In this document: positions 5,926 through 53,367 of the stretch, piece after piece
Numbering within the stretch: the first letter of the stretch is position 1
Layout of the letters: each line of letters opens with the position of its first letter
Assembly: GCA_016303095.1 (NCBI GenBank)
Contig: JAEDMH010000001.1
Location: 1-57,584, forward strand
DNA from: Lentisphaeria bacterium
GTDB lineage: Bacteria; Verrucomicrobiota; Lentisphaeria; Oligosphaerales; Oligosphaeraceae
Reading direction: 5' to 3'
Length of the DNA stretch: 57,584 nucleotides
Program-made: the position numbers and the translations under genes
The notes under the pieces: model-generated
What the model saw: the letters and a program-made list of their open reading frames with translations, nothing else
Told to the model about the DNA's origin: nothing
Database searches by the model: none

Positions 5926-5939
5926 TCGAATCTGACACG

Positions 5940-6003
5940 GCCTTCGCCATGGCGAAGGCTCCCGGCCTCCGGAAGGGAACTTTCCTTTCCGGGGGCTTTT
6001 TTT
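5940..6003 (+). terminator. Rho-independent terminator region after rpsA (two hairpins plus T7)
   Basis: Perfect 20-nt palindrome GCCTTCGCCATGGCGAAGGC at 5940-5959. A second hairpin spans 5966-5995 (about 11 bp with one bulge) and is followed by a run of 7 T at 5997-6003. Confidence 0.7.
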
Positions 6004-6153
6004 ATTCGCGAGGAGGAAGGAATCCCGGGGGCTGGAAATTTGAGGGGATGGTGTTATTTTGGACTTTGTTTTCCCCGATCGGGCTTCTCCTTTTTGGGGG
6101 GCAAGGGAAGGGGTTTTTCTTTTCCGTTTTTTCACAGATCACGATAGAAAAAG

Positions 6154-12353: not shown

Positions 12354-12377
12354 GGAGTGTTCGGAGAAAGAGGGGGG

Positions 12378-14363
12378 CTAGAGGGCGTCCTGCACTTCCT
12401 GGCGGAAGGAGAGGGCGGGCAGGCCCGCCTGGTTGACCAGATTCCCTTCGGGCAAGTCCACCTTGCCGTTGTATTGGCAGAGGACGGGATGGGGGACTTC
12501 CGGATGGGAGAGGAGGAGTTCCTCTCCCTGGAGGGTGGCCTGGGCAGGGCGGAGGATGCCGTCCTTTCCCGCCATCTCGAAGCCTGCCAGGGGCTGTCCG
12601 TCCTTGGCGTGGAGCCCCTTCCCGTAGAGGAAATGGAGGCGGAGGGAGGCGCCTTCCCGGGTCACCCGATCCAGGGTTGGGCCCTGGGGCAGAACGCCCT
12701 CTTCCCCATAGAGATTGGCCAGGGCCAGGAGGAAGAGCCGGTATCCGAAGGAGCGCTTGTCATGGGGGTGGATGTCCGTGGGCTCGAAGAGGGCCAGATC
12801 CGTGGCGGTGATGACGCCCGTCTCCGGGGTCTCCAGGAAGACCCTCCGCTGGGCATCCTGAATCTTCAGCCAGTTTTCGGGATGGAGATCCCGGTAGTTG
12901 GCCAGCTGGACGAAATAGAAGGGGAAGTCCTCCCGCTGCCCCCAGGCGTGGCGCCAATCCTCAATGAGATCCCGGAAGCGCATGGCGTAGAGGGCGGTGG
13001 TTTCGTCGGTGTCCGCATCGTTCTCTCCCTGGTACCAGAGGACTCCCCGAATGGGGAAGGGGATCAGGGGGCGGATCTTGTTGTCGAAGAGGCGATGGGG
13101 GGAATTTCGGCAGCAGATGGGGTTGGCGGCCTGTTCCGGTCCTCCCAGGGGTTGGAAGGCGTACTCCGGCCAGGCCTTCCAGAGGGTGTCGGCCAGGGGG
13201 AGGGTTTCTCCCGTGGTCAGGTTCTCCAGGAAGTAGGCCCGCTTGGAGCCGGTGAAGCCGGCGTCGAAGAAGAAGCAGTAAGCCCGGATGGCCACCACGT
13301 TGCGTCCCGCCTTCACCGCCTGGGGAGGCACGGGGTAGTTCCGGGGGGTGCACCAATACTGGGTGTCGAATCCCGTCCCCGTGGCGCCCACCTGCACCCC
13401 GTTGAAATAGGTCACGTCGTGCTTGTCCACGCCTCCCAGATGGAGCATCAGGGGTTGGCCTTCCCAGGAGGGGGGCAGGGTCACTTCCCGGCGCACCCAG
13501 AGGGACCCGTGGCTGGAGATCTTCTGGATGATCCAGGAACCGGGAACTTCCATGGTCTTCCAGGAGGAGTCGTCATAGTCCGGATTGGCGTAGCCCAAGG
13601 CGAATCCCCGGTTGCCCGGATCCATCTGGGTGATATGGTCGAAGCATTGGTTGTCCTCGTTGATGCAGTCGGGGAAGGAGGCGTGGGTCTCCAGGCAATC
13701 CCAGGACTCCGGGCGGTAGACGCAGGCATCGTCCTTCTCCAGAAGCTTGTAGTTTTCCGGGCGTCGGGAGAGGGTCTCCCGGCTGGTCCACGCGTGGACG
13801 AAGGTGCCGCCCCAGGAGGAGTGGATCAGCCCCACGGGAATCTGGGGGAACTTTTGCCGGTGGAAGAGGGCGAACCAGGCGCCGATGGCGGTGAAGCCGG
13901 CGGCTGTGTCGGGAGAGGAGAGCTGCCATTCCCCTCCGGGCGGCAGGGTCTCCGGACGGGTGGCCAGGGTGTCATTGGGGGTGGTGAAGCAACGGATGAG
14001 GGGGTCGTTGCCCCCCTCCTGCAAATACTGTCCGGTCTGCTCCAGGGGATCCCCGGGGGAAAAGGTCATCAGGGGAAACTCCGCATTGGACTGGCCGGAA
14101 ACCAGCCAGGTCTCCCCCACCAGCAGATCCCGGCAGACACATTCCTCGTTCTTGCAGGTCACCCGGAGCTCCAGGGGGCCGCCCTCCGCCAGAGAGGGGA
14201 AACGCAGCTCAAAGCGGCCGTCCCAGGAGCTGGGGGCGTAGGCGGAGAGGGATCCCAGGGTGGCATGGACCATGGCGCGGGGGGTGTCGCACCAGCCCCA
14301 GACGACGATGGGCTTGTTGCGTTGGATGACGGCGTGGTCGGACCAGATGGCGGGCAGTCTCAT
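12378..14363 (-). CDS. Sialate O-acetylesterase-like carbohydrate esterase
   Basis: MRLPAIWSDHAVIQRNKPIVVWGW N-terminus plus LVSGQSN, WYQGEND and a C-terminal beta-sandwich, as in the SASA/9-O-acetylesterase family. Confidence 0.75.
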   Translation of the reverse strand: MRLPAIWSDHAVIQRNKPIVVWGWCDTPRAMVHATLGSLSAYAPSSWDGRFELRFPSLAEGGPLELRVTCKNEECVCRDLLVGETWLVSGQSNAEFPLMTFSPGDPLEQTGQYLQEGGNDPLIRCFTTPNDTLATRPETLPPGGEWQLSSPDTAAGFTAIGAWFALFHRQKFPQIPVGLIHSSWGGTFVHAWTSRETLSRRPENYKLLEKDDACVYRPESWDCLETHASFPDCINEDNQCFDHITQMDPGNRGFALGYANPDYDDSSWKTMEVPGSWIIQKISSHGSLWVRREVTLPPSWEGQPLMLHLGGVDKHDVTYFNGVQVGATGTGFDTQYWCTPRNYPVPPQAVKAGRNVVAIRAYCFFFDAGFTGSKRAYFLENLTTGETLPLADTLWKAWPEYAFQPLGGPEQAANPICCRNSPHRLFDNKIRPLIPFPIRGVLWYQGENDADTDETTALYAMRFRDLIEDWRHAWGQREDFPFYFVQLANYRDLHPENWLKIQDAQRRVFLETPETGVITATDLALFEPTDIHPHDKRSFGYRLFLLALANLYGEEGVLPQGPTLDRVTREGASLRLHFLYGKGLHAKDGQPLAGFEMAGKDGILRPAQATLQGEELLLSHPEVPHPVLCQYNGKVDLPEGNLVNQAGLPALSFRQEVQDAL

Positions 14364-28615: not shown

Positions 28616-28696
28616 GACACCCGTCCCTTCAGACGCCTATCTCCCTGGCCTTCTCTCCGGGACTTGCTTTCCTGGAGAGGGGGCGGGGACTGCCTT

Positions 28697-28730
28697 ACGC
28701 CCCTTCAGGCTCATCCTGTGGGGCGTTTTT
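28697..28730 (+). terminator. Terminator-like hairpin plus T5 between rplO and secY
   Basis: ACGCCCC (28697-28703) pairs with GGGGCGT (28720-26), with a 16-nt loop. The T5 run at 28726-30 starts with the last base of the stem. Confidence 0.4.
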
Positions 28731-29043
28731 CCCCCAGTGTTTCCCCCTCTGATCTGAGAAAACCGTTTTGAGAACGGCCCTCGTCCCCTCTCCTCCGTCT
28801 CTCTTCTTTATGGACGGAGGGGGGAAACGTTTGCCTTCCCTTGGTGGGGAGAAGCCTCTTCTGACAGGGAAGAGGAGACCCATTTCCCTTGAATTTCCCG
28901 TTTCTCCTGGGAAAACGACTCCCTGACGGGTATATTGAGGGCTTCGGGACGGACAGCTCCGCCCCCCTTTTCCTTTCTCTCCCTTTCCTGGAGAGTGGGA
29001 TTTCCTTTGCGTTCCGTCATTCACGTTCCTGAAAGATTCTGCC

Positions 29044-30423
29044 ATGCTCTCCGCCTATCTGAATTGCTTTAAGATTCCGGAATTGAGAAAGCGCCTCTTC
29101 TTCACCTTCGCCATGATTGCGCTGGTGCAGCTGGCGGCCGCCATCCCCTGTCCGGGGATTGATCCCGCCCGCTTGAAGGAGCTCTTCGGCAATCTGAACA
29201 GCGATGCGGGCGCCTCGGGCATCATGGGCATGCTGAATCTTTTCAGCGGCGGAGCCATGGAGAAGTTTGCCATTGGCGCCTTGGGCATCATGCCCTACAT
29301 CTCCGCTTCCATCATTCTTCAGCTCATGACTCCCGTCATTCCTGCCCTGAGCAAGATGACCCGGGAAGGAGAGAGTGGAATGCAGCAATACAATTTCATC
29401 ATGCGCTTGTTGACGGTGGGCGTGGCCATTGTCCAGGGCGTGATGTTCTCCATGGCCATGATGGAACCCTCCCGGGTGGGCCTGGGAAATGTCTCCGTGG
29501 TGTCCAATCCCGGCGCGGGCTTCATCCTGCAAACGGTCATCATCCTTACGGGCGGCTCCATGTTCATCACCTGGCTGGGGGAGATGGTGACAGAGCGGGG
29601 CGTGGGAAATGGCGCCTCTCTCATCATCACCGTGAATATCGTGGCGAGAATCCCCAGCGCCCTGGTGAGTCTCTATCAAATGGTCTTCATGGGCAGCGCC
29701 ACCGGAGAAAGCCAGCTGACCATTCTCCATCTCCTGATCCTGGTTGTCCTCTTTGTTGCGGTGACGGTGGGCGCCATCGTCCTCACGGAAGGCATGCGGA
29801 AGATTCCCGTGCGCTATGCCCAGCAGCGCTCCATGGGATTCCTGGGCCGCTCCACCGGGGTGCAGACGACCTATCTCCCTCTCCGGGTCAACTACGCCAA
29901 CGTGATGCCCATCATCTTCGCCGGCGCCATCCTTTCCTTTGTGGAAATGGGAATCCGCTATCTCCCCTTGAATGGGGTCACCCAGTGGATCAGCACCAAG
30001 TTGGCCTATGGCTCCCCCAGCTATCTGGTGATCTACGCCGCCCTCCTTCTCCTCTTCTCCTTCTTCTGGGTGGCCAACCAGTTCAACCCTATCCAGATCG
30101 CCGATGATTTCCAGAAGAACAACGGCTACATCCCCGGCATCCGCCCCGGCAAGCCCACCAGCGATTTCCTGGATCACGCCATGACCCGCATTACCCTGGC
30201 CGGCGCCATCGGCTTGCTGATCCTGGCCATCCTGCCTATGGTTCTGGCTACCTCTTTCCTGAAAATCCCCCATACCATCGCCCAGTTCTTCGGCGGCACC
30301 AGCCTCCTCATCATTGTGGGCGTGATGTTGGATACCATGCGGCAGATCCAAACCTACCTCATCAGCCGCAACTATGATGGATTCCTCTCCAAGGGAATCC
30401 TCCGGAACGGACGGACGATGTAG
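29044..30423 (+). CDS. secY: Preprotein translocase subunit SecY
   Basis: 459 aa and 10 TM helices. IPELRKRLFFT, GIMPYISASII, GGTSLLI and VGVMLDT motifs. Confidence 0.95.
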   Translation: MLSAYLNCFKIPELRKRLFFTFAMIALVQLAAAIPCPGIDPARLKELFGNLNSDAGASGIMGMLNLFSGGAMEKFAIGALGIMPYISASIILQLMTPVIPALSKMTREGESGMQQYNFIMRLLTVGVAIVQGVMFSMAMMEPSRVGLGNVSVVSNPGAGFILQTVIILTGGSMFITWLGEMVTERGVGNGASLIITVNIVARIPSALVSLYQMVFMGSATGESQLTILHLLILVVLFVAVTVGAIVLTEGMRKIPVRYAQQRSMGFLGRSTGVQTTYLPLRVNYANVMPIIFAGAILSFVEMGIRYLPLNGVTQWISTKLAYGSPSYLVIYAALLLLFSFFWVANQFNPIQIADDFQKNNGYIPGIRPGKPTSDFLDHAMTRITLAGAIGLLILAILPMVLATSFLKIPHTIAQFFGGTSLLIIVGVMLDTMRQIQTYLISRNYDGFLSKGILRNGRTM

Positions 30424-30454
30424 ACCCACGGCCCATCCCCCAACGAGCTTTCAA

Positions 30455-30493
30455 GGGCGGACATGCTCCAGCATGCCCGCCCTTCTTTTTTTT
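30455..30493 (+). terminator. Strong rho-independent terminator after secY
   Basis: GGGCGGACATGC (30455-66) pairs with GCATGCCCGCCC (30471-82): 12 bp, one mismatch, 4-nt loop. It is followed by TTC plus a T8 run (30486-93). Confidence 0.8.
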
Positions 30494-30585
30494 CAGGGAC
30501 ATGGATATCTCAGGATTCCCGCTCCTCCCAACGGCAAGAAAAATGATTCCCTACGCCGCATGGATAGGAGATCGATATGCAATTC

Positions 30586-30689
30586 GCTGAAAACGCATGA
30601 AAAGGAAAGAACAATCTTGATTTCTTAAAAAATTTTTCTATAATACCCTTGTTCCGCTTCGGATTTTCCCGTTGCCCATCTTTCTCTCC
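30586..30689. repeat. Promoter/5'UTR cassette, copy 1 (~104 nt, AT-rich)
   Basis: Aligns without gaps to 31631..31734 with only a few substitutions (gctgaaaaYgca..ggaaagaacaatcttgatttcttaaaa..ttctataata..gttccgcttYggattttcccgttgcccatctttctctcc). Confidence 0.8.
30617..30644 (+). promoter_or_regulatory. Near-consensus sigma70-type promoter TTGATT-N16-TATAAT driving paralog P1
   Basis: TTGATT at 30617-22 and TATAAT at 30639-44, separated by an AT-rich spacer. GAAGGAG RBS at 30692-98 lies 5 nt before ATG 30704. Confidence 0.55.
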
Positions 30690-30703
30690 CTGAAGGAGCA
30701 TTG

Positions 30704-31621
30704 ATGTCCATGAGGCCGGTTCTTTGTCTTTCCCTTCTTTGTTGCTTCCTGTTTCTGGGTGGTGCCGAAGAGGACTACCGTGCCCATTTGGAGAAGGCCT
30801 TTGAGGTGATGGCCACTCGCACCATGGAGTATCAACACGCGGTGGGCATGGGGAAAGGGAGAAAGAAAGTGGTTTTCTACCAGATTCTTCAGGAGGGGAG
30901 GGCAGATGGTAGTGTTGTCCGCAGGGAGAGGAGACTTGGGCCGCTGGAAAAGACACCCCGGGAGAAGTTCCCTCTTGGGGCCTTTACTTTTGAATCCTAT
31001 TTCACGGACGAGGGATTTACCAAAGTGTATATCAGTCGAGAAAAACGAAGGGGAATACGGATGAAGCAATCGATTCCCCACCGGAGAATCCCTGCGGAAG
31101 CGAGAGTGTCGGGTCAGGTGGAACAACAGGGAGATGAGGCGTGCTGGAAGATTCAGGTGAAATGGCCGAAGGATGAATCGGGTGTGGAACGGAGGAGTGA
31201 ATATCTCGTTTCCCAGAGGGAATCTGTCCTTTATCGAGAAAGGGATTTTGATGGAAACGGACGTCTCCAGATGGAGGTAAAAAATGAGAATTTCAATTTC
31301 CATCCCCAGTCCTCACAGAAGGAATTTCGTCTCCCCCCATTGGATGAAATCCATTTTGCCAAGAATGCCCAGGAATTTTCAGAGATGTGTCAGAACGTGA
31401 CCTGGGAAATTGTCCAGGAGGCCATTCCGGAGTCCCGGGGAGGGACGAGAAAGAGCCCCTTGGCGAGGAAAGAGGGCTTTTCCCTTCGTTCCTGGCGACG
31501 CCTTCACCGTTCTCCCGTGCGGTCCGCTACCTGTGGCGTTCTGCTTCTGGCGGTGCTCTCCTTGGGCACCGCCCTGGCGCTGAAAAGTCGGAGTAAAAGG
31601 GGCGTATCGGTCGACCAATGA
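30704..31621 (+). CDS. Island paralog P1: signal peptide, ~230-aa periplasmic domain (LolA/RseB-like fold suspected), C-terminal TM helix and basic tail
   Basis: [21 protein letters not shown] signal. Family motifs YFTDEGFTKVYIS, ACWKI, RESVLYRERDFDGNG and NFNFHP..FRLPP. C-terminal [23 protein letters not shown]. Protein-level homology to four other ORFs in the island. Confidence 0.85.
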   Translation: MSMRPVLCLSLLCCFLFLGGAEEDYRAHLEKAFEVMATRTMEYQHAVGMGKGRKKVVFYQILQEGRADGSVVRRERRLGPLEKTPREKFPLGAFTFESYFTDEGFTKVYISREKRRGIRMKQSIPHRRIPAEARVSGQVEQQGDEACWKIQVKWPKDESGVERRSEYLVSQRESVLYRERDFDGNGRLQMEVKNENFNFHPQSSQKEFRLPPLDEIHFAKNAQEFSEMCQNVTWEIVQEAIPESRGGTRKSPLARKEGFSLRSWRRLHRSPVRSATCGVLLLAVLSLGTALALKSRSKRGVSVDQ

Positions 31622-31630
31622 GGGCCATTT

Positions 31631-31734
31631 GCTGAAAATGCAAAAAAAGGAAAGAACAATCTTGATTTCTTAAAATTTTTTTCTATAATACTTTTGTTCC
31701 GCTTTGGATTTTCCCGTTGCCCATCTTTCTCTCC
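31631..31734. repeat. Promoter/5'UTR cassette, copy 2
   Basis: Second copy of the 30586..30689 cassette, located upstream of the rhodanese-led operon. Confidence 0.8.
31662..31689 (+). promoter_or_regulatory. Near-consensus promoter TTGATT-N16-TATAAT driving the rhodanese-to-pseudopilin operon
   Basis: TTGATT at 31662-67 and TATAAT at 31684-89. Same geometry as copy 1. Confidence 0.55.
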
Positions 31735-31768
31735 TTCTTCGATGAGACAAGAGGTTAGGGAGGCAGAA

Positions 31769-32248
31769 ATGAAAATTCTACGGTGTCAGTCCATCCGAGA
31801 GTGCCTTTTGATTCTCCTCGTGGGAAGCCTTTGCCTGGGAAGTTTCTGGGACGGAGCGCAGGGGCGCAGGATGTCAGTGCCTAGGGAACGGCCTCGACAG
31901 AAGCAGGCGGACGCCATTGATCTTGTGGGGGTGCTGGGGTTGCTCCAGCAGTATGAGGATCGAGTGCTCCTGGTGGACGTGCGTCCCCGCCCGCAATATG
32001 AGACAGGACATATTCCTTACTCCTGCCCGGCCTATCCTCCCAGTTGCACCTGCGAACTGAGCCAGGAACTCTTGGAGCAGGGAAAGAAAGCGGATTTTGT
32101 GGTGGCGCTGGGGGTGCGGGGACAAGATTTTTCTCCTTTTCTCGCTCATTTCTCCCAGGAGGCTCGTTGCCCCGTGTTTCTTTACGAGGGAGGAATTTCC
32201 GAATGGAAGGGATGTGGCCTTCCTTGGGAGGGGGAGAAAGCAGAATGA
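31769..32248 (+). CDS. Exported rhodanese-homology-domain protein (no Cys in the expected catalytic loop)
   Basis: ATG 31769 after GAGGTTAGGGAGG. Signal/anchor CLLILLVGSLCLGSFW. Rhodanese blocks LLVDVRPRPQYETGHIP, FVVALGVRGQD and LYEGGISEW. The upstream TTG-start part of ORF 31694 is the duplicated noncoding cassette. Confidence 0.7.
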   Translation: MKILRCQSIRECLLILLVGSLCLGSFWDGAQGRRMSVPRERPRQKQADAIDLVGVLGLLQQYEDRVLLVDVRPRPQYETGHIPYSCPAYPPSCTCELSQELLEQGKKADFVVALGVRGQDFSPFLAHFSQEARCPVFLYEGGISEWKGCGLPWEGEKAE

Positions 32249-32667
32249 AACAGGGCCTCTTTCGCGGTGTGGCATGGGGACGCCGGGTGACTTGTCTCCT
32301 TTCTCTGCTGTTGCTTTTGAAGGGACCGGGACGCTTTGTGGAACTGGGGACGATCCTGGGCGCCTGGCCACTGGGGGCCTTGGCCTACATTCTTCTGGCC
32401 GGATACAGCGCCCTGTGGTGCGCCCGCCTGTGGTGCGGAACCCTTTCCCCGGGGGATAAGGGAGGAATGGCCTGCTCCCTGATCCTCTCCCTGTGTGTCC
32501 TGGCCATGGCCTTCGCTCCCTCTCTTCAGGCCTGCCACTGTGTTTCCTGGAATCCAGCTCAACTCTTCAGCCCCTACTGGAGATTTCTCCTGTGGTCAGG
32601 GTTGTGGCTAGGGGCAGAGATTCTTTCCTGCTGGTGGTTCACGCACAAAAAAGGAGATGTCCCATGA
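32245..32667 (+). CDS. Small 4-TM membrane protein with loop cysteines (MauE/DoxX-like or DsbB/VKOR-like, tentative)
   Basis: 140 aa with ATGA overlaps at both ends. Four hydrophobic helices. WCARLWC (CX4C) follows helix 2 and ACHC (CXC) follows helix 3. Pairing with a rhodanese is typical of MauE-family proteins. Confidence 0.6.
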   Translation: MKQGLFRGVAWGRRVTCLLSLLLLLKGPGRFVELGTILGAWPLGALAYILLAGYSALWCARLWCGTLSPGDKGGMACSLILSLCVLAMAFAPSLQACHCVSWNPAQLFSPYWRFLLWSGLWLGAEILSCWWFTHKKGDVP

Positions 32668-32897
32668 AACGAATCCTGCTTCTTCTTTCTTTTGTCCTGG
32701 TTGGAGTCTTGTTTCACCTCTTCTCCGAGGAAGTGGTCATTAGTTGCCAGGCACGGTGCTATGACCTTTACCAAGCGTATTACGAAGATTGCTGGGTCGC
32801 ATACTGGAATGACTGGGATGCGGCGCGGGACTGCGTGGATAAGATTGACGCAATGCGGGCGAAATGTGTGGCCAATTGTGAGCCAGAAGAGAATTAG
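32664..32897 (+). CDS. Small secreted six-cysteine protein A (CX3C-X10-C-X13-C-X10-CX3C)
   Basis: 77 aa. AAGGAG RBS 7 nt upstream and ATGA overlap with the preceding gene. Signal MKRILLLLSFVLVGVLFHLFS. The Cys scaffold is shared with ORF 38488..38754. Confidence 0.7.
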   Translation: MKRILLLLSFVLVGVLFHLFSEEVVISCQARCYDLYQAYYEDCWVAYWNDWDAARDCVDKIDAMRAKCVANCEPEEN

Positions 32898-32919
32898 CAG
32901 TTTTTACCCAGGAGCGTAG

Positions 32920-33797
32920 ATGTCCATGAGGCCGGTTCTTTGTCTTTCCCTTCTTTGTTGCTTCCTGTTTCTGGGTGGTGCCGAAGAGGACTACCGTGTC
33001 CATTTGGAGAAGGCCTTTGAGGTGATGGCCACCCGCACCATGGAGTATCGGGAACTGGTGGGGATGGGGAAGTGGGGAAGAAGCAAGATGAAGGTCTATC
33101 AATGTCAGAAGCCAGACGGACGCACCCTCCGGGTGGAGAAGGGATCGTGGAATGAGAAATGGGAACCCCGGGAGAAATTGCCTCCCGGGGTATCGGATAC
33201 TCACTTCTATTATACCGACGAGGGGTTTACCTACGTGTATGTCAGCCGGGAGAAGATTCGTGGCATCCGCATGAAGCAAGGAATCCCCCGAAAGAAGGTG
33301 GAGCCGGGGGACAAAATCACGGGCAAAACGGATGAGGAGGTGGACGGGTTCCCCTGCTGGATCATCCGGAGGGATAGGGGCAAGAAAGCCGAAGGGGCGG
33401 TGAAGGTGGAGGAATATGCCGTGGACAAGGAGAGTTTTGTCATTCGCCGGGAGCGTGCCTTCAATGAGAATGGAGGGCTGCTTATGGAACGGAAGCGAAT
33501 CAACTTTCTCTTCTCTCCTGTCTTTGAAGAGGGACTGTTTCAAGTGCCTCCCCTGGATGAAATCGCCTTTGCCAAAGATGCCTGGGAAGAGGTGGAACAT
33601 GTCAAGAAGTTCTCTTGGGAGATTGTCCAGGAGGCCATTCCGGAGTCCCAGGGAGGGACAAGAAAGAGCCCCCTAGCGAGGAAAGAGGGCTTTTTCCTTC
33701 GTTCCTGGCGACGCCTTCGCCGTTCTCCCGTGCGGGCCGCTACCTGTGGCGTTCTGCTTCTGGCGGTCCTCTCCCTGGGCACCGCCCTGGCGCTGAA
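32920..33797. repeat. 878-bp direct repeat, copy 1 (covers P2)
   Basis: Near-identical to 34848..35725 at an offset of 1928 bp. The encoded proteins are identical until about residue 250. Only a handful of substitutions were seen by eye. Confidence 0.85.
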
Positions 33798-33834
33798 AAG
33801 CCGAAGGAAAAGGGGCGTATCGGTCGACCAATGA
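32920..33834 (+). CDS. Island paralog P2
   Basis: The signal and first ~43 aa are almost identical to P1. Motifs [35 protein letters not shown] and NFLFSP..LFQVPP. C-terminal TM plus KSRRKR tail. AGGAG RBS. Confidence 0.85.
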   Translation: MSMRPVLCLSLLCCFLFLGGAEEDYRVHLEKAFEVMATRTMEYRELVGMGKWGRSKMKVYQCQKPDGRTLRVEKGSWNEKWEPREKLPPGVSDTHFYYTDEGFTYVYVSREKIRGIRMKQGIPRKKVEPGDKITGKTDEEVDGFPCWIIRRDRGKKAEGAVKVEEYAVDKESFVIRRERAFNENGGLLMERKRINFLFSPVFEEGLFQVPPLDEIAFAKDAWEEVEHVKKFSWEIVQEAIPESQGGTRKSPLARKEGFFLRSWRRLRRSPVRAATCGVLLLAVLSLGTALALKSRRKRGVSVDQ

Positions 33835-33981
33835 GTGCCAAGTTTCTTCTTGGCTCTGAGGAAAGATTCCTTTTTCGAGAATTTCTGTTGAGGCTTCAAA
33901 GTTTTTTGCATGGTTCATTTTCTTCTTCACCATTCGTGGACTGGTTTTTGCCCCTCATGGGGCATGAGAATCTGAAACATC

Positions 33982-34857
33982 ATGTCCTTTCTTCGCTGTC
34001 TATTTTGGTTTTTCCTGAGTGGGGGTGTTCTGATTGCCCAGGAGGATTTTGGGGCGCACCTGCGTCTTGCCTCTGAGGTGATGGCCACAGCCACCATGCG
34101 CTATACGCGGACGGTGCGCATGGGGATGCCTGGGGGGCGGGGAGAACTTTCCTATGATGTGATTCAGGAGATGCAGCCTCATGGCACCCTGTTTCGAAGA
34201 GAGGAGTTGATGCATGAAGGGCGTCTTCTCCGTCGGGAGTCCCTGCGGGGAATCCAGGAAATCCAGCGGATCTATTACACAGACCAAGGGGAAAGCATCG
34301 TCTTTATCTCCGCAAGGTCGGTGCGCACCATATGCACTCCCGAGGCGGTTCGCCGGCTGACGTTCACTTCCGAGAGTCAATTCTCGGGAAAGGAGATCAC
34401 CTATGCCGGAGTCCCCTGCTGGGAAATCCATCACACACTAAAATGGCAAGGCAAGTCCCTTCCCCGGGACTACATCGTGGAAAAGGAAAGTCATGTCATT
34501 CGACGAGAAAGGCTTCTGGATGAGGATGGCCGCATGCTCAGCGAAACGACGTACGGAAACTTCTCCTTTGCGCCTCAGGTCTCTCCAGGACTTTTTCAGC
34601 CTCCCGCTCCAGATGTCCTATTCTTTGCCCGAACTCCCGAGGAATTGGGAGAGGCCTATCGTGGAGTGACAGAAGCGCGCACTCAGGATTTTTTGAGTGA
34701 AAAGAGCCGGAATCTGCCACGTCCTGTGGTCAAAGGCAGGAGCCGAATTTCTGCCTTTTTGAGGGGGAGGGTGGTCTTGGTGGCGGGAAGTCTCCTTTGC
34801 TTCGTGGCAGCCGTCGTCTTGAAGGGACTTCGAAAAAAAAGGAGACAATGTCCATGA
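33982..34857 (+). CDS. Island paralog P3 (divergent)
   Basis: Signal MSFLRCLFWFFLSGGVLIA. Motifs YYTDQGESIVFIS, VPCWEI, KESHVIRRERLLDEDG and NFSFAP..LFQPP. C-terminal TM plus LRKKRR tail. Overlaps the P4 start by 10 nt. Confidence 0.8.
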   Translation: MSFLRCLFWFFLSGGVLIAQEDFGAHLRLASEVMATATMRYTRTVRMGMPGGRGELSYDVIQEMQPHGTLFRREELMHEGRLLRRESLRGIQEIQRIYYTDQGESIVFISARSVRTICTPEAVRRLTFTSESQFSGKEITYAGVPCWEIHHTLKWQGKSLPRDYIVEKESHVIRRERLLDEDGRMLSETTYGNFSFAPQVSPGLFQPPAPDVLFFARTPEELGEAYRGVTEARTQDFLSEKSRNLPRPVVKGRSRISAFLRGRVVLVAGSLLCFVAAVVLKGLRKKRRQCP

Positions 34858-35725
34858 GACCGGTTCTTTGTCTTTCCCTTCTTTGTTGCTTCCTGTTTCT
34901 GGGTGGTGCCGAAGAGGACTACCGTGTCCATTTGGAGAAGGCCTTTGAGGTGATGGCCACCCGCACCATGGAGTATCGGGAACTGGTGGGGATGGGGAAG
35001 TGGGGAAGAAGCAAGATGAAGGTCTATCAATGTCAGAAGCCAGACGGACGCACCCTCCGGGTGGAGAAGGGATCGTGGAATGAGAAATGGGAACCCCGGG
35101 AGAAATTGCCTCCCGGGGTATCGGATACTCACTTCTATTATACCGACGAGGGGTTTACCTACGTGTATGTCAGCCGGGAGAAGATTCGTGGCATCCGCAT
35201 GAAGCAAGGAATCCCCCGAAAGAAGGTGGAGCCGGGGGACAAAATCACGGGCAAAACGGATGAGGAGGTGGACGGGTTCCCCTGCTGGATCATCCGGAGG
35301 GATAGGGGCAAGAAAGCCGAAGGGGCGGTGAAGGTGGAGGAATATGCCGTGGACAAGGAGAGTTTTGTCATTCGCCGGGAGCGTGCCTTCAATGAGAATG
35401 GAGGGCTGCTTATGGAACGGAAGCGAATCAACTTTCTCTTCTCTCCTGTCTTTGAAGAGGGACTGTTTCAAGTGCCTCCCCTGGATGAAATCGCCTTTGC
35501 CAAAGATGCCTGGGAAGAGGTGGAACATGTCAAGAAGTTCTCTTGGGAGATTGTCCAGGAGGCCATTCCGGAGTCCCAGGGAGGGACGAGACAGAGCCCC
35601 CTAGCGAGGAAAGAGGGCTTTTTCCTTCGTTCCTGGCACCGCCTTCGCCGTTCTCCCGTGCGGGCCGCTACCTGCGGCGTTCTGCTTCTGGCGGTCCTCT
35701 CCCTGGGCACCGCCCTGGCGCTGAA
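34848..35725. repeat. 878-bp direct repeat, copy 2 (covers P4)
   Basis: See 32920..33797. Confidence 0.85.
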
Positions 35726-35762
35726 GATGGGGAAGAGAAAAGAAAACCAGGAGGTCCTATGA
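34848..35762 (+). CDS. Island paralog P4 (near-copy of P2 with a different extreme C-terminus)
   Basis: ATG 34848 after a GGAG RBS. Translation matches P2 apart from a few residues, plus a tail of [13 protein letters not shown] in place of LKSRRKRGVSVDQ. Confidence 0.85.
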
Positions 35763-36595
35763 GAGCAAAGAATCGATTCGCCACAGAACGGGCCAGGACG
35801 GGGCGTGCCTTTACCCTGGTGGAGTTGTTGACGGTCATGGGCATCATCGGCATCTTGGCCTCTCTGCTGTTGGGGGCGGTGTCCACGGCCCGGGGGCATG
35901 CCCGGCGGGCCGCCTGTCTGAACAACCAGCGGCAGACCCTGCTGGCCATGCAGATGTATGCGGGGGACTACAATGGCAACATGATGGTCTGCGCCGGCTT
36001 CAACGAGAATGACGTGTGGGCCTACAAGGCGGTGCTGGGCACCTCTTCCGACTGGCGGAAGCAGGCGATAGAACGCTATGGGCGTGCCCTGGGAGGAAAA
36101 TTCTCCCTGGGGTATCTTCCGGAGGAGGCCACCAGCTGTCCCAATGGCCACTTTGTTTCCTGGCGCACCACCTGGTGCTATGCCACTCCCCAGACCCATC
36201 GGGTCTGGCCTCTGGCCTATGGCGCCCTGGAGGGGGTGGTGACCCTGAAGGGATTCGACCAGATCTTCCGGTTTGACAGCTCCCCCCTCTCCGCCTCTCG
36301 CACGTATGTGTTGAGCGATTCCTGCTTTGCCGAGCAGTCGAAGATCACCTACAATGGATACAAGCCGGATGTGGAGACCTATCGCATGCACACCGGCTCC
36401 TCCGGCGCTGACGAACTGGCCGCGGCCCGCCATGGACGGAAGATCAATGTGGGCTTCTGGGATGGCCACGGAGAATCCATGGACTGCCAGTCTGCCGCCG
36501 AACTTTTCTCCAAAGGCACCAAATCCACGGTCACCTACATCTTTGTGGATGGAGTATTGGAGGAGTTCGAAACCTCCGGAAGCCTGGAGGATTAG
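35759..36595 (+). CDS. Prepilin-type N-terminal cleavage/methylation protein with H-X9-DG C-terminal motif (pseudopilin-like)
   Basis: [24 protein letters not shown] class-III signal and [13 protein letters not shown] (H-X9-DG). AGGAGG RBS and ATGA overlap with the P4 stop. Confidence 0.85.
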
Positions 36596-36766
36596 CCACT
36601 CTGTCTTTTCCTCCGGAGAGGTTTTTTCCGGGGGAAAGGGGGAATTTGGGAGGATTCGGGAGGCCAAGCCGGGAAAAAGGGACACATTACCCTGCATTCG
36701 TCTTCTCAAAGCCAGGGAAGTCCCATTCCCTCATGTTGCGTTGCCATCTTCCATTCCACCATCGTC

Positions 36767-38248
36767 ATGGAGTATTACTATCAGGGACAGTTGAGACTTC
36801 AGCTCTTTGGGGGCTCTCCCAACGTGACAGCCACCGTGCTTCTCTTTGCTTTCTTCCTGGTGCTGGGAGGAGTGGCCTTTGCCCGCCAGCGCATTCCGGG
36901 AAAACGCTGGCTTTGGGCAGGGGTGCCAGGATATCTTCTGTGTCTCCTGCTCCTGGAGGGATTGTTTCTTACCTATTCCCGGGGAGGCATGGTGGCCCTG
37001 GCCGTGGGATTGCTCTTCCTGGTCTGGAAAGAATGGCGCCTCCTGATTCCTCTCCTGGTGCCGGGACTCCTCCTGCTGGCCTTTACCCCTGCGGGCCTGA
37101 ATCGGGTCAAGGCGGTGGGAAATCTCCAAGACCGCTCCATCGGAAACCGGCTGATTCTCTGGTATCATGGATCGGGGATGATTCTGGACTATTGGAAGAA
37201 AGGGGTGGAGGTGGAGGCCTGCGGCACCCATTATACAAAATGGTATAAACCATTGGAGCAGAAGGTGGAAGGATATCGCGGCATGGTGAACGGGTATTTG
37301 ACCTACATGGGCAACCACGGATTGCCCAAGGCTTTCCTGGTCTTCTGGGGACTCTTCTTCCTGGTCTGCTGCACCCTGGATCTGGGCTATCTCAGGAATA
37401 TGCCCTTCTACCGATGTCTGGGGGCGGGAATGCTCTCCATGGCGGTCTGCGAGGTCTTCAGCACCATGTTCATCTTCCCCTCCATCCGGTGGTGCATGGG
37501 AATCGGCGGCGCCCTTGCCTTGGCAGGATTCCTCTGGAGCCATCGGGATGTCTGGCGCCGGCAGGCGGGGGCGCTGGCGACTCTGGGAAGAAGATTCGCA
37601 AGGCTGGCAGGCGCCGGTGCCCTCCTGGCTCTTCTCCCTCTTCTTGTGGTGGCGGTGATGGGATCCCTCGCCCGCCGAGAACAGTATTACCGCAGAACCA
37701 CGGGAACCCTGTCTCTGGATGGGAAGACGATGGCCTTTCAGCAATTCACGGCGAATCATCCCAATGGACGATGGATTCTCCATCTGGCGGGAAATGTGGA
37801 GGAGGAGGCCCGCAGCCGCATCCTGCCTCTGTGCCAAGCCGGCTACGGAGTTCTTTCCCTGGAAGGGGCAGAGAGATGGTCCTCCGAGGAAATGGATCGA
37901 AGACTCCCCTTGCTCCTGGCAAGACGGGAAAATCCCCCGTTCTCCGTTCTGATGGTTTCCGGAGGCCTGCCTGCCAATTGCGTTTTCCGTAGGTTCTGCG
38001 AAAAACGCCCGGAGAACATCTCGTGCCTGGTGCTCTGGGAACCCATTTGGCAACATCCCATGGAGGAGTATTCCCTGGAAGCCATGGACATTCCCGAAGG
38101 AGGCCACGTCCTGTTCCTGGAGGACGAGGAATGGGGACATTCCATGGGGGAAGCCTATGGAAAGACCCAGAAAGAAGAACGTGCAATCCAGGTTCCCTCG
38201 GGAGACCAGCTGGCCGAGGCCCTGGGAACCGCCTTGGAGGAACACTGA
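36767..38248 (+). CDS. Short O-antigen-ligase-like (Wzy_C-type) membrane protein with a soluble C-terminal domain
   Basis: About 8 TM helices. LTYSRGGMVALAVGLLFL resembles the Wzy_C core. It seems to lack the first ~4-5 helices of typical WaaL/Wzy_C proteins. The C-terminal ~190 aa are soluble and alpha/beta-like, with no clear GxSxG. Confidence 0.6.
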   Translation: MEYYYQGQLRLQLFGGSPNVTATVLLFAFFLVLGGVAFARQRIPGKRWLWAGVPGYLLCLLLLEGLFLTYSRGGMVALAVGLLFLVWKEWRLLIPLLVPGLLLLAFTPAGLNRVKAVGNLQDRSIGNRLILWYHGSGMILDYWKKGVEVEACGTHYTKWYKPLEQKVEGYRGMVNGYLTYMGNHGLPKAFLVFWGLFFLVCCTLDLGYLRNMPFYRCLGAGMLSMAVCEVFSTMFIFPSIRWCMGIGGALALAGFLWSHRDVWRRQAGALATLGRRFARLAGAGALLALLPLLVVAVMGSLARREQYYRRTTGTLSLDGKTMAFQQFTANHPNGRWILHLAGNVEEEARSRILPLCQAGYGVLSLEGAERWSSEEMDRRLPLLLARRENPPFSVLMVSGGLPANCVFRRFCEKRPENISCLVLWEPIWQHPMEEYSLEAMDIPEGGHVLFLEDEEWGHSMGEAYGKTQKEERAIQVPSGDQLAEALGTALEEH

Positions 38249-38256
38249 GGCTTCCC

Positions 38257-38279
38257 CGCAGACCACACAGTAATGCCCT
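38257..38279. repeat. 23-nt direct repeat, left copy (CGCAGACCACACAGTAATGCCCT)
   Basis: Matches 39717..39739 with 2 mismatches. It also forms the 5' side and loop of a hairpin (CCCCGCAG 38254-61 pairs with CTGCGGGG 38278-85). Confidence 0.6.
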
Positions 38280-38393
38280 GCGGGGCCACAGGCTTTCAAC
38301 AGGGAGCACACGGAATCCACGCTGGGCGGGGCGCGGAGACCCCAGAGGGGCGGTCCATGCACCCCGCACGTCCCGCTTCTGGGGGAGGGAGCC

Positions 38394-38417
38394 TCTCTAG
38401 AATCTCTAGAATCTCTC
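38394..38417. repeat. TCTAGA-core tandem repeat, left (TCTCTAGAA x2 plus TCTCTC)
   Basis: Read directly from the sequence. Two XbaI-type palindromes sit 9 nt apart, about 70 nt upstream of small Cys protein B. Confidence 0.7.
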
Positions 38418-38487
38418 GCCCCTGGTGTTCGACGAAAAATCCACACCACGTGTACTCAATCAGAAAACCAAACAAGGAGGAAGCCCC

Positions 38488-38754
38488 ATGAAAGGTGTTC
38501 TTGTTTCTCTTGTCTTTGTTCTCCTCGGTACAGGGCTGGCCCTAAGTCGAACCATGGTCCTCGCCGAACAGAATGAATTGTGCCGGTTGGCCTGTAATAA
38601 GAATGACAATGATCAAGTCGCGATTTGCAATCGGGAGTTTGGTGCTGGCGGCCCCCAGGAGAGTGAAGAGAGGAGGTTGGCTTGTCTCCTTGCCGCCGAC
38701 AAATCTTGGCGTTTATGCATGTCCGGTTGTTCTGATGCGGAGGTTGACAGATGA
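38488..38754 (+). CDS. Small secreted six-cysteine protein B (CX3C-X10-C-X18-C-X10-CX3C)
   Basis: 88 aa. AAGGAGG RBS 7 nt upstream. Signal MKGVLVSLVFVLLGTGLALS. Same Cys spacing as protein A except for the central loop. ATGA overlap with the P5 start. Confidence 0.7.
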   Translation: MKGVLVSLVFVLLGTGLALSRTMVLAEQNELCRLACNKNDNDQVAICNREFGAGGPQESEERRLACLLAADKSWRLCMSGCSDAEVDR

Positions 38755-39701
38755 GACGGGAAGAAAGGCATAAGGGCGTTCTGGCCTGGTTTTCCCCGAG
38801 GTGGAGAGGAATTTGCCGCACCTGGTTTGGGTGGGCCCTGATTCTTTGTTTGATGGCGGGGCAGGGGGCAGGGGGGGAGGAGCAGGATTGGGAAAGACTC
38901 CTTCGGGAGGCGGAGGCAACCATGCGACAGGCCACCATGACCTTCCGGCAACGGATCGGCCTGGGGAATGCCTCCTCCCAAACCAAGACGGAGGTGCTGG
39001 TATGGCAGAAAGGGGCTGGCGATGGCACGGTGCAACGGAGGATGGAGATTGCGGGAACGGGGTCTCAACCGGAGAACCTGCGGGGAGGACAGATGCTTTT
39101 CCGCACCTACTACAACGACCAGGGAAGAACGGAGGTGATTTTCTGGCAGGACAAGTGCTGGGGCATTCGCGTCCCCGCCGCCATCCCCCGATTTTTCCCG
39201 GAGACCCCGGCCCTGTTCTCCGGCAAGGAAAGTCTTTTTCACGAATATCCTTGCTGGGAAATCACCCGACACTACCAGGATAAAAACGGAAATGCCCTGC
39301 AGGATGTCTATCAGGTGGATCGGGAACACCGCGTCATTCGCCAAATGCGCTCCTTTAACGCCCAGGGAATGCCCACCTTCGCCTGCACCTACGAGGATTT
39401 CGATTGGCACCCCACCTTCCCTCCTGAACTCTTCCAACTGCCTCAGAAACTCCAGCTCTCTCTGGCGAAAAACGAGGAGGAGTTCACAAAAAAGAAAAGC
39501 CAGGCGATGGAGGAACTGACCAGGGAATGGAATCGGCGAGAAAAGGGGCGCAAAAACATCCCCTCTTTTCCTTGGCAAGAACGATGGAAAAGACGGATGA
39601 GGCATGCCTCTGGGCGCTTCGCACTCCTTGGCCTGGCCTTAGGATCCTTCCTCCTCCTGGGGCTGGGGATCGCCCTGAAGGTCCGGACAAAAAAAATGTG
39701 A
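38751..39701 (+). CDS. Island paralog P5 (most divergent)
   Basis: N-terminal anchor/signal WFGWALILCLMAGQGAG. Motifs YYNDQGRTEVIFW, YPCWEI, REHRVIRQMRSFNAQG and DFDWHP..LFQLP. C-terminal TM FALLGLALGSFLLLGLGIALK plus VRTKKM tail. Confidence 0.8.
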   Translation: MRREERHKGVLAWFSPRWRGICRTWFGWALILCLMAGQGAGGEEQDWERLLREAEATMRQATMTFRQRIGLGNASSQTKTEVLVWQKGAGDGTVQRRMEIAGTGSQPENLRGGQMLFRTYYNDQGRTEVIFWQDKCWGIRVPAAIPRFFPETPALFSGKESLFHEYPCWEITRHYQDKNGNALQDVYQVDREHRVIRQMRSFNAQGMPTFACTYEDFDWHPTFPPELFQLPQKLQLSLAKNEEEFTKKKSQAMEELTREWNRREKGRKNIPSFPWQERWKRRMRHASGRFALLGLALGSFLLLGLGIALKVRTKKM

Positions 39702-39716
39702 GCGCTGCCGCAGGAA

Positions 39717-39739
39717 CGCAGACCACGCAGAAATGCCCT
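39717..39739. repeat. 23-nt direct repeat, right copy (CGCAGACCACGCAGAAATGCCCT)
   Basis: See 38257..38279. Here it sits only 3 nt before the TCTAGA repeats. Confidence 0.6.
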
Positions 39740-39742
39740 TAT

Positions 39743-39766
39743 TTCTAGATCTCTAGATTTCTAGAT
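39743..39766. repeat. TCTAGA-core tandem repeat, right (YTCTAGAT x3)
   Basis: TTCTAGAT CTCTAGAT TTCTAGAT. Shares the 9-mer ATCTCTAGA with the left repeat (38402-10 versus 39749-57). Confidence 0.7.
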
Positions 39767-39806
39767 TTTCGCAGGCGGGGTGTCTCCGGGGTGTTGCCGG
39801 GCGAGC

Positions 39807-39834
39807 TTGCAAAAGGGTGGGCAAGGGTTATAGT
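39807..39834 (+). promoter_or_regulatory. Putative promoter of the rplK operon (TTGCAA-N16-TATAGT)
   Basis: TTGCAA at 39807-12 and TATAGT at 39829-34. Leaves a ~130-nt leader before rplK. Confidence 0.45.
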
Positions 39835-39967
39835 AAGGGTTCGTCTTTTCATGGCAGGCGTGTCATCTCCTTGACAGGGGCGGACATGGACCGTAGAAAA
39901 AGTGACATTTTTCGGGAGAGGACCTGCCACTTCTTACCGGAGAATGTCCGTTTTAGGAACAAACACG

Positions 39968-53188: not shown

Positions 53189-53264
53189 GCGGGCATAGCT
53201 CAGTTGGTAGAGCGCTACCTTGCCAAGGTAGCTGTCGACGGTTCGAGTCCGTTTGCCCGCTCCA
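53189..53264 (+). tRNA. tRNA-Gly (anticodon GCC), CCA encoded
   Basis: Cloverleaf read by hand. Acceptor stem GCGGGCA/TGCCCGC. D arm AGCTCAGTTGGTAGAGC. Anticodon stem CTACC/GGTAG with loop TTGCCAA. T arm GACGG-TTCGAGT-CCGTT. 3' CCA present. Confidence 0.95.
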
Positions 53265-53291: not shown

Positions 53292-53367
53292 GCGGGCATA
53301 GCTCAGTTGGTAGAGCGCTACCTTGCCAAGGTAGCTGTCGACGGTTCGAGTCCGTTTGCCCGCTCCA
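53292..53367 (+). tRNA. tRNA-Gly (anticodon GCC), second identical copy
   Basis: Identical 76-nt sequence, 103 bp downstream of the first copy. Confidence 0.95.

Follow-up and report, generated by a model that had tools for sequence, protein, structure and literature searches.

A candidate lineage-restricted envelope gene cluster ahead of rplK in gut Lentisphaerota

The described systems closest to the gene cluster reported here are the secE-nusG-rplKAJL-rpoBC gene order, the LolA superfamily of periplasmic proteins with its members RseB and MucB, the Wzy_C-domain membrane proteins WaaL, PglL, TfpO and TfpM, and the cysteine-rich helical hairpins. RseB senses lipopolysaccharide (LPS) intermediates. 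Helical hairpins of the CX3C...CX3C type include plant alpha-hairpinin antimicrobials and scorpion toxins. All known O-oligosaccharyltransferases (O-OTases) carry a Wzy_C domain and often are paired with an upstream pilin gene, and the histidine of their H[NSQ]X9G motif is required, an H286A mutant being inactive (PMC9829042). Elements resembling each of these systems meet in a 57,584-nucleotide stretch of Lentisphaeria DNA (contig JAEDMH010000001.1 of GenBank assembly GCA_016303095.1, positions 1 to 57,584; hereafter, the window), in which 9.3 kb of lower-GC DNA lies between the secY terminator and the promoter and leader of rplK.

This interval (30494-39806) holds 11 credible genes, all on the + strand. 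None is a housekeeping gene, as an earlier note on the window had said while counting 12 open reading frames (its own list also sums to 11), and every product is exported or membrane-bound. Our preferred explanation is that of an envelope gene cluster resident in the chromosome and restricted to one lineage of gut Lentisphaerota, an Oligosphaeraceae-like clade, and to this explanation as a whole, including the role suggested below, we give roughly even chances. Its conserved core is a membrane-tethered protein of predicted LolA/RseB fold, here called P, together with an atypical Wzy_C protein. Around this core, cassettes appear to have been duplicated in tandem and recombined, enlarging the cluster; they consist of a P gene alone or of a gene for a six-cysteine (six-Cys) miniprotein followed by a P gene. 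Not all versions encode the remaining components, a DUF1559 pseudopilin and a coupled pair formed by a rhodanese-like protein, which lacks the catalytic cysteine, and a membrane protein with a Cys-His-Cys (CHC) motif. This evolutionary and anatomical description is one that we hold with high confidence. The biochemical role that we suggest for the cluster, a periplasmic envelope module that handles lipids or glycolipids, is tentative.

The rplK-upstream site in relatives

A secY-based scan, with one genome per species, supplied the relatives and assigns the window to gut-derived Lentisphaerota. The nearest record is a metagenome-assembled genome (MAG) of the Oligosphaeraceae with 98% SecY identity, and other relatives were recovered from the gut of humans, horses and ruminants. 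At locus L001 (98% SecY identity), whose flanks are ~90% identical to the window at the DNA level, secY is followed by a P3-like gene, a P2-like gene, two pairs of a six-Cys gene and a P gene, a pilin gene, the Wzy_C gene and rplK. Orthologues of P3 and P4 are present there, as are two six-Cys and P pairs that are not in the window. The rhodanese-like gene, the gene for the CHC membrane protein (TM4), and the CysA-P2 and CysB-P5 pairs are missing from L001, and homology with the window resumes at 39805, at the -35 box of rplK. At L002 (96% SecY identity), secY is likewise followed by a P gene, inside which the contig ends, short of rplK.

Beyond these closest relatives, the same families lie in a different left-hand setting. 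L094 and L095 have the order tuf-rpmG-secE-nusG, then rhodanese-like gene-TM4-(Cys-P)x3-4-Wzy_C on the opposite strand, then rplK-rplA-rplJ-rplL; their MAG also includes a contig on which SecY identity is 89%. A minimal version, with one P gene and then the Wzy_C gene between nusG and rplK, occurs at L100 and L101 (RplK 94% identical). On three other contigs, rplK is directly preceded by P0003, an orthologue of P5. Wherever the rplK-upstream junction of a relative can be read, the site is occupied (L001, L081-L083, L094/L095 and L100/L101), and the window, L001, L094/L095 and L100/L101 all share the conserved promoter and leader of rplK.

The relatives keep tuf-rpmG-secE-nusG...rplK-rplA-rplJ-rplL-rpoB-rpoC, in the same orientation as in the usual bacterial order. 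Unlike that order, the clade has 2.9-8.7 kb of non-housekeeping genes between nusG and rplK, and in the sub-clade of the window the end of the spc operon, at secY, replaces the nusG side; tuf, rpmG, secE and nusG are absent from both the window and L001. In the simplest history, a core of P and Wzy_C would have become established between nusG and rplK in an ancestor and then expanded by tandem duplication of cassettes, and a rearrangement in the window's sub-clade would have joined the end of the spc operon to the left edge of the cluster.

The earlier note called the interval an accessory island, and a foreign genomic island recently acquired at a housekeeping junction, where it displaced the genes after secY, would account for several of its properties. 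GC content is 0.558 in the island and 0.617 in the rest of the window (1-kb windows outside the island have a mean of 0.618 and an sd of 0.023), and GC at third codon positions (GC3) is 0.51-0.77 in island genes, compared with 0.72-0.84 in thirteen other genes of the window, non-ribosomal ones included. The AT-richness that the note had judged by eye is therefore real. GC content of the cluster is also below that of its surroundings in L001, L094, L097 and L100, but not in L085 or L087. The interval has its own promoter, its content differs between 98%-identical relatives, and its protein families are very rare; at E <= 1e-3, a search of 1.84 billion representatives yields 78 clusters of the P family.

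Nevertheless, a recent foreign insertion is not borne out, and we consider it highly improbable and largely refuted. The cluster occupies the rplK-upstream site in the examined sub-clades (window, L001, L094-L096 and L100/L101), and all homologues found lie in Lentisphaeria. No integrase, transposase, or flanking, terminal or inverted repeat was found in the island, and the nearest tRNA gene is 13 kb away. A plasmid tblastn search and a phage megablast search gave no match, nor did a search with P2 of JGI metagenomes and viral contigs. The ratio dN/dS between the window and L001 is 0.24 for P3, 0.24 for P4, 0.14 for the pilin and 0.18 for the Wzy_C gene, compared with 0.00-0.11 for secY, rplO and rplKAJL. 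Judged by these ratios, the island genes are functional and under purifying selection, and constraint on them is weaker than on the housekeeping genes. Overall positive selection was considered as well, and values of 0.14-0.24 rule it out.

The genes said to be displaced give no support to such an insertion either. It is true that adk, map, infA, rpmJ, rpsM, rpsK, rpsD, rpoA and rplQ are absent after secY in the window, as the earlier note stated. However, they follow secY in 0 of the Lentisphaeria loci L001-L066 and do so only in Verrucomicrobia and Kiritimatiellae loci (L067-L080), as determined with E. coli query sequences. Their absence is thus a trait of all Lentisphaeria loci examined and is unrelated to the island. 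An spc operon that ends at secY suggests that this conserved gene order was broken at the level of the phylum, and the genes after secY differ in every lineage. The note had also weighed the prospect of relatives with the same genes, at the same place and with a known function: the place is indeed shared, the content is variable, and no function is known.

Most public contigs with island genes measure no more than 0.6-3.5 kb, or have one of their ends within the array (P0001, P0002, P0005, P0007, P0131-P0134 and L081-L084), and L081-L083 begin at or just upstream of CysB or P5. Because repeated P cassettes break short-read assemblies, copy numbers in MAGs are probably underestimates. A separate irregularity is seen at L005, where a second, partial secY (11850-12722; 291 amino acids, 86% identical to the SecY of the window) lies right after the full-length gene, and the two following open reading frames start with identical sequence; this could be a real duplication or an assembly artefact.

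The P and Wzy_C proteins

The five paralogous P proteins are encoded at 30704-31621 (P1), 32920-33834 (P2), 33982-34857 (P3), 34848-35762 (P4) and 38751-39701 (P5). P2 and P4 are near-identical except at the 3' ends of their genes, and the others are 29-63% identical to P1. Comparison of P1 and P2 reveals a mosaic, in which the ends are 92% and 83% identical and the barrel core is 42% identical. By hydropathy, each P protein has a signal peptide, a domain of ~220 amino acids, a helix, a linker, a C-terminal transmembrane (TM) segment and a basic tail. They are not lipoproteins, as no lipobox is present. The C-terminus was also considered as an exosortase-type sorting signal, and this idea was dropped because there is no signature motif by the TM segment and no exosortase gene.

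The likeness of P proteins to the LolA superfamily comes from structure prediction. An AF2 model of P3 (pLDDT 81, pTM 0.71) has an N-terminal helix followed by 11-12 beta-strands, and the first 50 Foldseek matches of this model in the PDB are almost all LolA-superfamily folds. The best is RseB (structures 3m4w and 2v42; E 8.5e-8, probability 1.0), followed by MucB (E ~1e-7) and then by LolA, LprG and ependymin-related proteins. Sequence profiles hardly register the family: P2 matches Pfam LolA_like at E 0.016 and 15.3 bits, below the cutoff of 30, whereas P1, P3, P4 and P5 match neither LolA_like nor MucB_RseB in Pfam, and no P protein matches an NCBIfam family. Among the family members, every source name looked up was unnamed or "hypothetical" and every member traced to a taxon belongs to Lentisphaeria. 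Distant matches of 450-515 amino acids carry no informative Pfam domain.

P proteins share with RseB, MucB and LolA a predicted open beta-sheet after an N-terminal helix and a periplasmic location. Unlike members of that superfamily, they are neither soluble nor lipoproteins but have a C-terminal TM anchor; they occur in multi-copy arrays, and they are not members by sequence profile. They also lack the C-terminal domain of RseB, ending instead in a helix, a linker and the TM segment, and neither the RseA/sigma-E partners of RseB nor the LolCDE partners of Lol systems are encoded near them. These comparisons bear on whether P proteins could sense envelope stress as RseB and MucB do, detecting mislocalised lipid or LPS and regulating a membrane partner accordingly, so that the island would be a regulatory module. 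RseB and MucB are the best structural matches, RseB itself responds to LPS intermediates, and in two distant loci P adjoins a PadR regulator and lies near lpxK, lptE or a heptosyltransferase gene. However, no sigma, anti-sigma or extracytoplasmic function (ECF) sigma gene and no site-1 or site-2 protease gene was found in the neighbourhoods read gene by gene, the RseB C-terminal domain is replaced by a TM anchor, and five paralogues in one locus would be unusual for a sensor. We regard this explanation as quite unlikely.

The second core component, the Wzy_C protein (36767-38248), scores 35.6 bits against Pfam Wzy_C, compared with a gathering cutoff of 31.7. Homologues at L094 and L100 score 38.9 and 40.3 bits, and those at L087 and L097 fall just under the cutoff. 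The domain starts at residue 58, and an AF2 model (pLDDT 78) has ~8 TM helices and a C-terminal alpha/beta-hydrolase-like domain, whose best structural neighbours by Foldseek are esterases; the position of the nucleophile is not conserved. Correspondence to WaaL was worked out from motif spacing and Pfam coordinates. Two arginines are invariant in the family alignments A7 and A8, R72 in TYSRGG and R128 in S-x-x-N-R, and these map to the regions of what we take to be R215 and R288, respectively, of E. coli WaaL. A V-N-x2-L-x6-G-L segment maps to H337-N-x2-I-x6-G-L of WaaL. In this segment the scaffold N175-x2-L178-x6-G185-L is conserved, corresponding to the N-x2-[IL]-x6-G-L part of the H[NSQ]X9G motif, whereas the histidine position is occupied by V, I, V, V and V in five diverse homologues, and the membrane domain has no invariant histidine at all. 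An hhalign comparison of the family with E. coli WaaL yielded no alignment, and searches of PDB sequences with the protein and with the Wzy profile gave nothing useful and no match to a solved structure.

The Wzy_C protein therefore resembles WaaL and the O-OTases PglL, TfpO and TfpM in its domain, in both arginine equivalents and in the motif scaffold. It differs from them in having Val or Ile in place of the catalytic histidine and an additional alpha/beta-hydrolase-like domain without a conserved nucleophile, and from WaaL in having ~8 rather than ~12 TM helices, roughly five N-terminal helices being missing.

Directly upstream of the Wzy_C gene is a pseudopilin gene (35759-36595). Its product has an AFTLVELL methylation motif with Glu5, N-terminal matches to type IV pilins and H-X9-DG near the C-terminus. 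It matches N_methyl and SBP_bac_10 in Pfam, and scores 21.8 bits against the N_methyl profile (cutoff 21.2), 22.1 against TIGR02532 (cutoff 16.3), and 21.7 against DUF1559, which is slightly under the cutoff of 23.3. This pseudopilin is an ordinary member of the DUF1559/H-X9-DG prepilin-type proteins of the Planctomycetes-Verrucomicrobia-Chlamydiae (PVC) bacteria; what sets it apart is only that it is translationally coupled to a P gene and lies ahead of the Wzy_C gene.

An upstream pilin gene is also a feature of tfpO and tfpM loci, and the arrangement invites the explanation that the cluster is a pilin O-glycosylation locus, in which the Wzy_C protein is a TfpO/TfpM-type oligosaccharyltransferase for the pseudopilin and the other genes are accessory. 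The pilin gene directly precedes the Wzy_C gene in the window, L001, L085, L086 and L087, consistent with the pairing known for O-OTases (PMC9829042). It is, however, absent from L089, L094, L097 and L100, half of the versions, and DUF1559 genes occur in several unrelated contexts in these loci, so that some of the adjacency could be chance. The histidine that is essential in WaaL, PglL and TfpM is replaced across the family, and the TM helices are too few. Pilin glycosylation is, in our judgement, an improbable function for the cluster.

The gene set is not an arbitrary one, because P, six-Cys, TM4, pseudopilin and Wzy_C genes recur together elsewhere in distant Lentisphaeria. Neighbourhoods of divergent P members (20-40% identity) repeat the same partner genes, and P and Wzy_C occur together in 8 of ~11 independent contexts. 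L087 has a TM4 fragment, a six-Cys gene, P, a P fragment, another P, a gene called X, a pseudopilin gene and Wzy_C. L085 and L086 have P, X, a pseudopilin gene and Wzy_C, with a further gene, Y, also in L085. L097 has a gene for a 644-amino-acid protein, then PadR, P, X and Wzy_C. L089 has a Wzy_C fragment, a six-Cys gene, P, Y and X, followed by genes for a TPR protein, LptE and a heptosyltransferase, and in L091 PadR, a gene for a 636-amino-acid protein and P lie beside lpxK. Both X and Y encode alpha/beta hydrolases that are anchored in the membrane and whose nucleophile elbows, GESAGG and GFSGGG, are intact. These esterases and the neighbouring LPS genes in distant loci are further pointers to a role in handling envelope lipids or glycolipids.

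Two further features of these neighbourhoods were observed. In L085, from a horse-gut MAG, genes for a PP2C phosphatase, a T2SSE-type ATPase and a Ser/Thr kinase (4330-8517) lie 1.5 kb upstream of P-X-pilin-Wzy_C, and a link of the module to a secretion or pilus ATPase is possible. The PadR-family regulator and the ~640-amino-acid protein precede distant P homologues in both L091 (7704-10903) and L097 (7523-10939); the two large proteins are 24-25% identical, and their order relative to PadR is swapped between the two loci.

In the mechanism that we tentatively propose, the ligand of P proteins would be lipidic or lipid-linked, and would be bound on the periplasmic side of the inner membrane together with the Wzy_C protein. 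The retained arginines suggest that the latter probably still binds a substrate of the undecaprenyl-pyrophosphate type; it may not ligate, the histidine being absent.

Six-cysteine miniproteins and their coupled genes

Two genes of the window encode six-Cys miniproteins, CysA (32664-32897; a mature part of ~56 amino acids) and CysB (38488-38754; a homologue is found in L089). The pattern C-x3-C-x10-C...C-x10-C-x3-C is invariant in 11 homologues. All have Sec signal peptides, and the mature parts, of ~53-63 amino acids, are acidic, with isoelectric points of 4.1-4.9 (4.1 for CysA) and net charges of -2 to -8. The symmetry of the pattern would be expected of a helix-loop-helix with three disulfide staples, and in this respect the miniproteins are reminiscent of twin CX3C and alpha-hairpinin hairpins. 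When present, a six-Cys gene is always directly upstream of a P gene, as CysA is of P2 and CysB of P5, and the two genes duplicate as a unit; L094 and L001 each have two units that are 96-100% identical. Each miniprotein would then partner the P protein encoded downstream of it.

Strict pairs of this sort are also suggestive of an array of secreted six-Cys peptide toxins with P proteins as their cognate tethered immunity proteins, comparable to bacteriocin/immunity or polymorphic-toxin arrays, with partnerless P genes as orphan immunity genes. Copy number does vary by strain, some P copies lack a partner, P1 and P2 have a variable core between constant ends, and known CX3C...CX3C hairpins include antimicrobials and toxins. 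However, the acidity of the mature peptides is unlike most membrane-active bacteriocins, and their signal peptides are ordinary Sec signals; the loci contain no dedicated ABC exporter, double-glycine leader or lysis gene. P is tied more closely to Wzy_C, which accompanies it in L085, L086, L097 and L100, than to the peptide, which those loci lack, and dN/dS is well under 1. PADLOC gave no match, which is weak evidence, as PADLOC does not cover bacteriocins. Overall, a toxin-immunity array appears unlikely.

Upstream of CysA are two coupled genes. The first (31769-32248) encodes an exported protein of the rhodanese family (Pfam Rhodanese, E 5.5e-10, 40 bits, cutoff 22.2). Its active-site loop, placed by eye from the spacing to a conserved GG..W motif, reads (L/F)GVRGQDFS in the window and L094, with Gly at the position of the catalytic Cys; C93-T-C95 (a CTC motif) and C149 are conserved in both homologues. 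The second gene (32245-32667) encodes TM4, a small polytopic membrane protein, described as 4-TM in the earlier note, with an invariant CHC motif in the loop after the third hydrophobic segment, as seen in an alignment of four homologues. By the positive-inside rule, this loop should face the periplasm. TM4 has no Pfam or NCBIfam match, and a search of PDB sequences found nothing useful; there is a loose resemblance to MauE/DoxX, VKOR and DsbB, which were dropped as relatives because no profile matched. The order rhodanese-like gene, TM4, six-Cys gene is found in three lineages, and in the window the TM4 gene is coupled by ATGA overlaps to both of its neighbours. All five start/stop overlaps of this kind described in the earlier note are present, and the block looks tightly co-transcribed.

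As a conjecture, the rhodanese-like protein and TM4 would serve thiol-disulfide chemistry for the triple-disulfide miniproteins. Their CTC and CHC motifs recall CXC thiol oxidoreductases such as Mia40. The island proteins differ from Mia40 and from alpha-hairpinins in showing no sequence homology to them, and the hairpin is a putative fold, read from the Cys pattern. Pfam, NCBIfam and PADLOC returned nothing for P1, P3, P5, TM4, CysA and CysB except a chance-level Phr_nterm match.

These parts can be assembled into one joint reading, which we offer as distinctly speculative. A CXC thiol relay, made up of the CTC protein and the outward-facing CHC membrane protein, might oxidatively fold alpha-hairpin miniproteins with three disulfides; each miniprotein might be the specific ligand of a cognate tethered receptor of LolA/RseB fold; and the receptors might work with a pseudo-ligase, the His-less Wzy_C/alpha-beta-hydrolase protein. 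Exchange of cassettes might then give strain-specific envelope recognition (for example, in self/non-self discrimination, phage evasion or host interaction) in an undescribed periplasmic system of PVC bacteria.

Several points weigh against our preferred reading of the interval as a resident envelope cluster handling lipids or glycolipids. The lower GC content could still reflect an old foreign origin. That P binds a lipidic or lipid-linked ligand is suggested by its modelled fold and by no other observation, and because the histidine required in WaaL, PglL and TfpM is absent, ligase activity of the Wzy_C protein is doubtful. LPS genes are neighbours in only two distant loci (L089 and L091). 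The pairing of six-Cys and P proteins is read from adjacency and co-duplication, and the correlation of their identities (rho 0.69) is what co-inheritance alone gives. The rhodanese-like protein lacks its catalytic Cys, and it and TM4 are missing at L001 and L089 despite the six-Cys genes there. P, the six-Cys proteins, TM4 and X and Y have no experimental or annotated function, all database names being "hypothetical".

Borders of the cluster and its place in Lentisphaerota biology

The boundaries of the island given in the earlier note were confirmed. On the left, secY (29044-30423) is followed by an intrinsic terminator that ends the S10-spc operon (30453-30493, + strand). Its G+C-rich stem of 12 bp has one mismatch, GGGCGGACAUGC-UCCA-GCAUGCCCGCCC, and is followed by a U-run. 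A simple terminator scan missed this element, but folding and dinucleotide shuffles support it (dG -22.4 kcal/mol, z = -3.5), in agreement with the strong terminator that the note had proposed. Further upstream, the rplO-secY spacer (28616-29043) is unusually long, at 428 nucleotides with a GC content of 0.57. Its conservation extends to L001 and L002 and not to L010; the spacer measures 14-200 nucleotides in more distant relatives, and contains no Rfam match and no convincing open reading frame.

On the right, the rplK operon has a promoter, TTGCAA-N16-TATAGT (39807-39834, + strand), 134 nucleotides ahead of the rplK start codon. TTGCAAA...TATAGTA is invariant in the four loci compared (window, L001, L081 and L094), and the promoter, which the note had placed at 39807, is kept together with a leader of ~130 nucleotides across related loci. 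A consensus fold of this 5' leader (39835-39967, + strand; L001 18490-18625, L094 11027-11161 and L081 1465-1599) has two hairpins, with 5 base pairs maintained by changes on both sides and an invariant GGGAGAG...CC core in the second hairpin. An Rfam search assigned it to no family. The rplK leader, which is highly conserved, may be an autoregulatory leader of the L1/L11 operon. Three TCTAGA palindromes with a period of 8 nucleotides (39744, 39752 and 39760; span 39744-39765) follow the stop codon of P5 and precede the -35 box of rplK. L081 has two copies, and L001 and L094 have none; these palindromes could be an operator or a recombination scar.

Inside the island, a direct repeat of 111 nucleotides (family D4, copies 91% identical, + strand) carries a promoter and 5' untranslated region (UTR) before P1 (30579-30689) and again before the rhodanese-like gene (31624-31734). 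Each copy contains TTGATT-N16-TATAAT, at 30617-30644 and 31662-31689, and the duplicated promoter proposed earlier is thereby recovered. The number of promoter-like sites in the region shows no excess (4, where chance gives 3.5 +/- 2.2), and support for the promoter comes instead from L001 and L002, in which it is conserved ahead of the first P gene. Elsewhere in the window, two tRNA-Gly(GCC) genes with equal Rfam scores lie in tandem, 27 nucleotides apart (53189-53264 and 53292-53367).

The combination of genes is annotated nowhere, as the earlier note had found in failing to map it onto any known system, and the literature on DUF1559 in Lentisphaerae and on gut Oligosphaeraceae yielded nothing about these genes. 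Each of the folds is known. What is undescribed in the databases and literature searched is the anchored LolA/RseB-fold family, the six-Cys family, the fusion in the His-less Wzy_C protein, the linkage of these genes, and their lodging between nusG and rplK.

The cluster is thus a strain-variable envelope array of several kilobases that sits stably inside secE-nusG-rplKAJL-rpoBC, which is among the most conserved of bacterial gene orders. In one sub-clade, the array marks a breakpoint that fuses the end of the spc operon to rplK. Since its repeated cassettes break assemblies, the locus is probably under-represented and mis-counted in MAGs. Turnover of the cassettes suggests a specificity that differs between strains. 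The anchored LolA/RseB-fold proteins, the six-Cys proteins with their hairpin pattern, the His-less Wzy_C fusion and the CHC membrane protein are uncharacterised families found only in gut Lentisphaerota, and their conserved linkage gives testable hypotheses on the envelope biology of a barely studied and mostly uncultured phylum.

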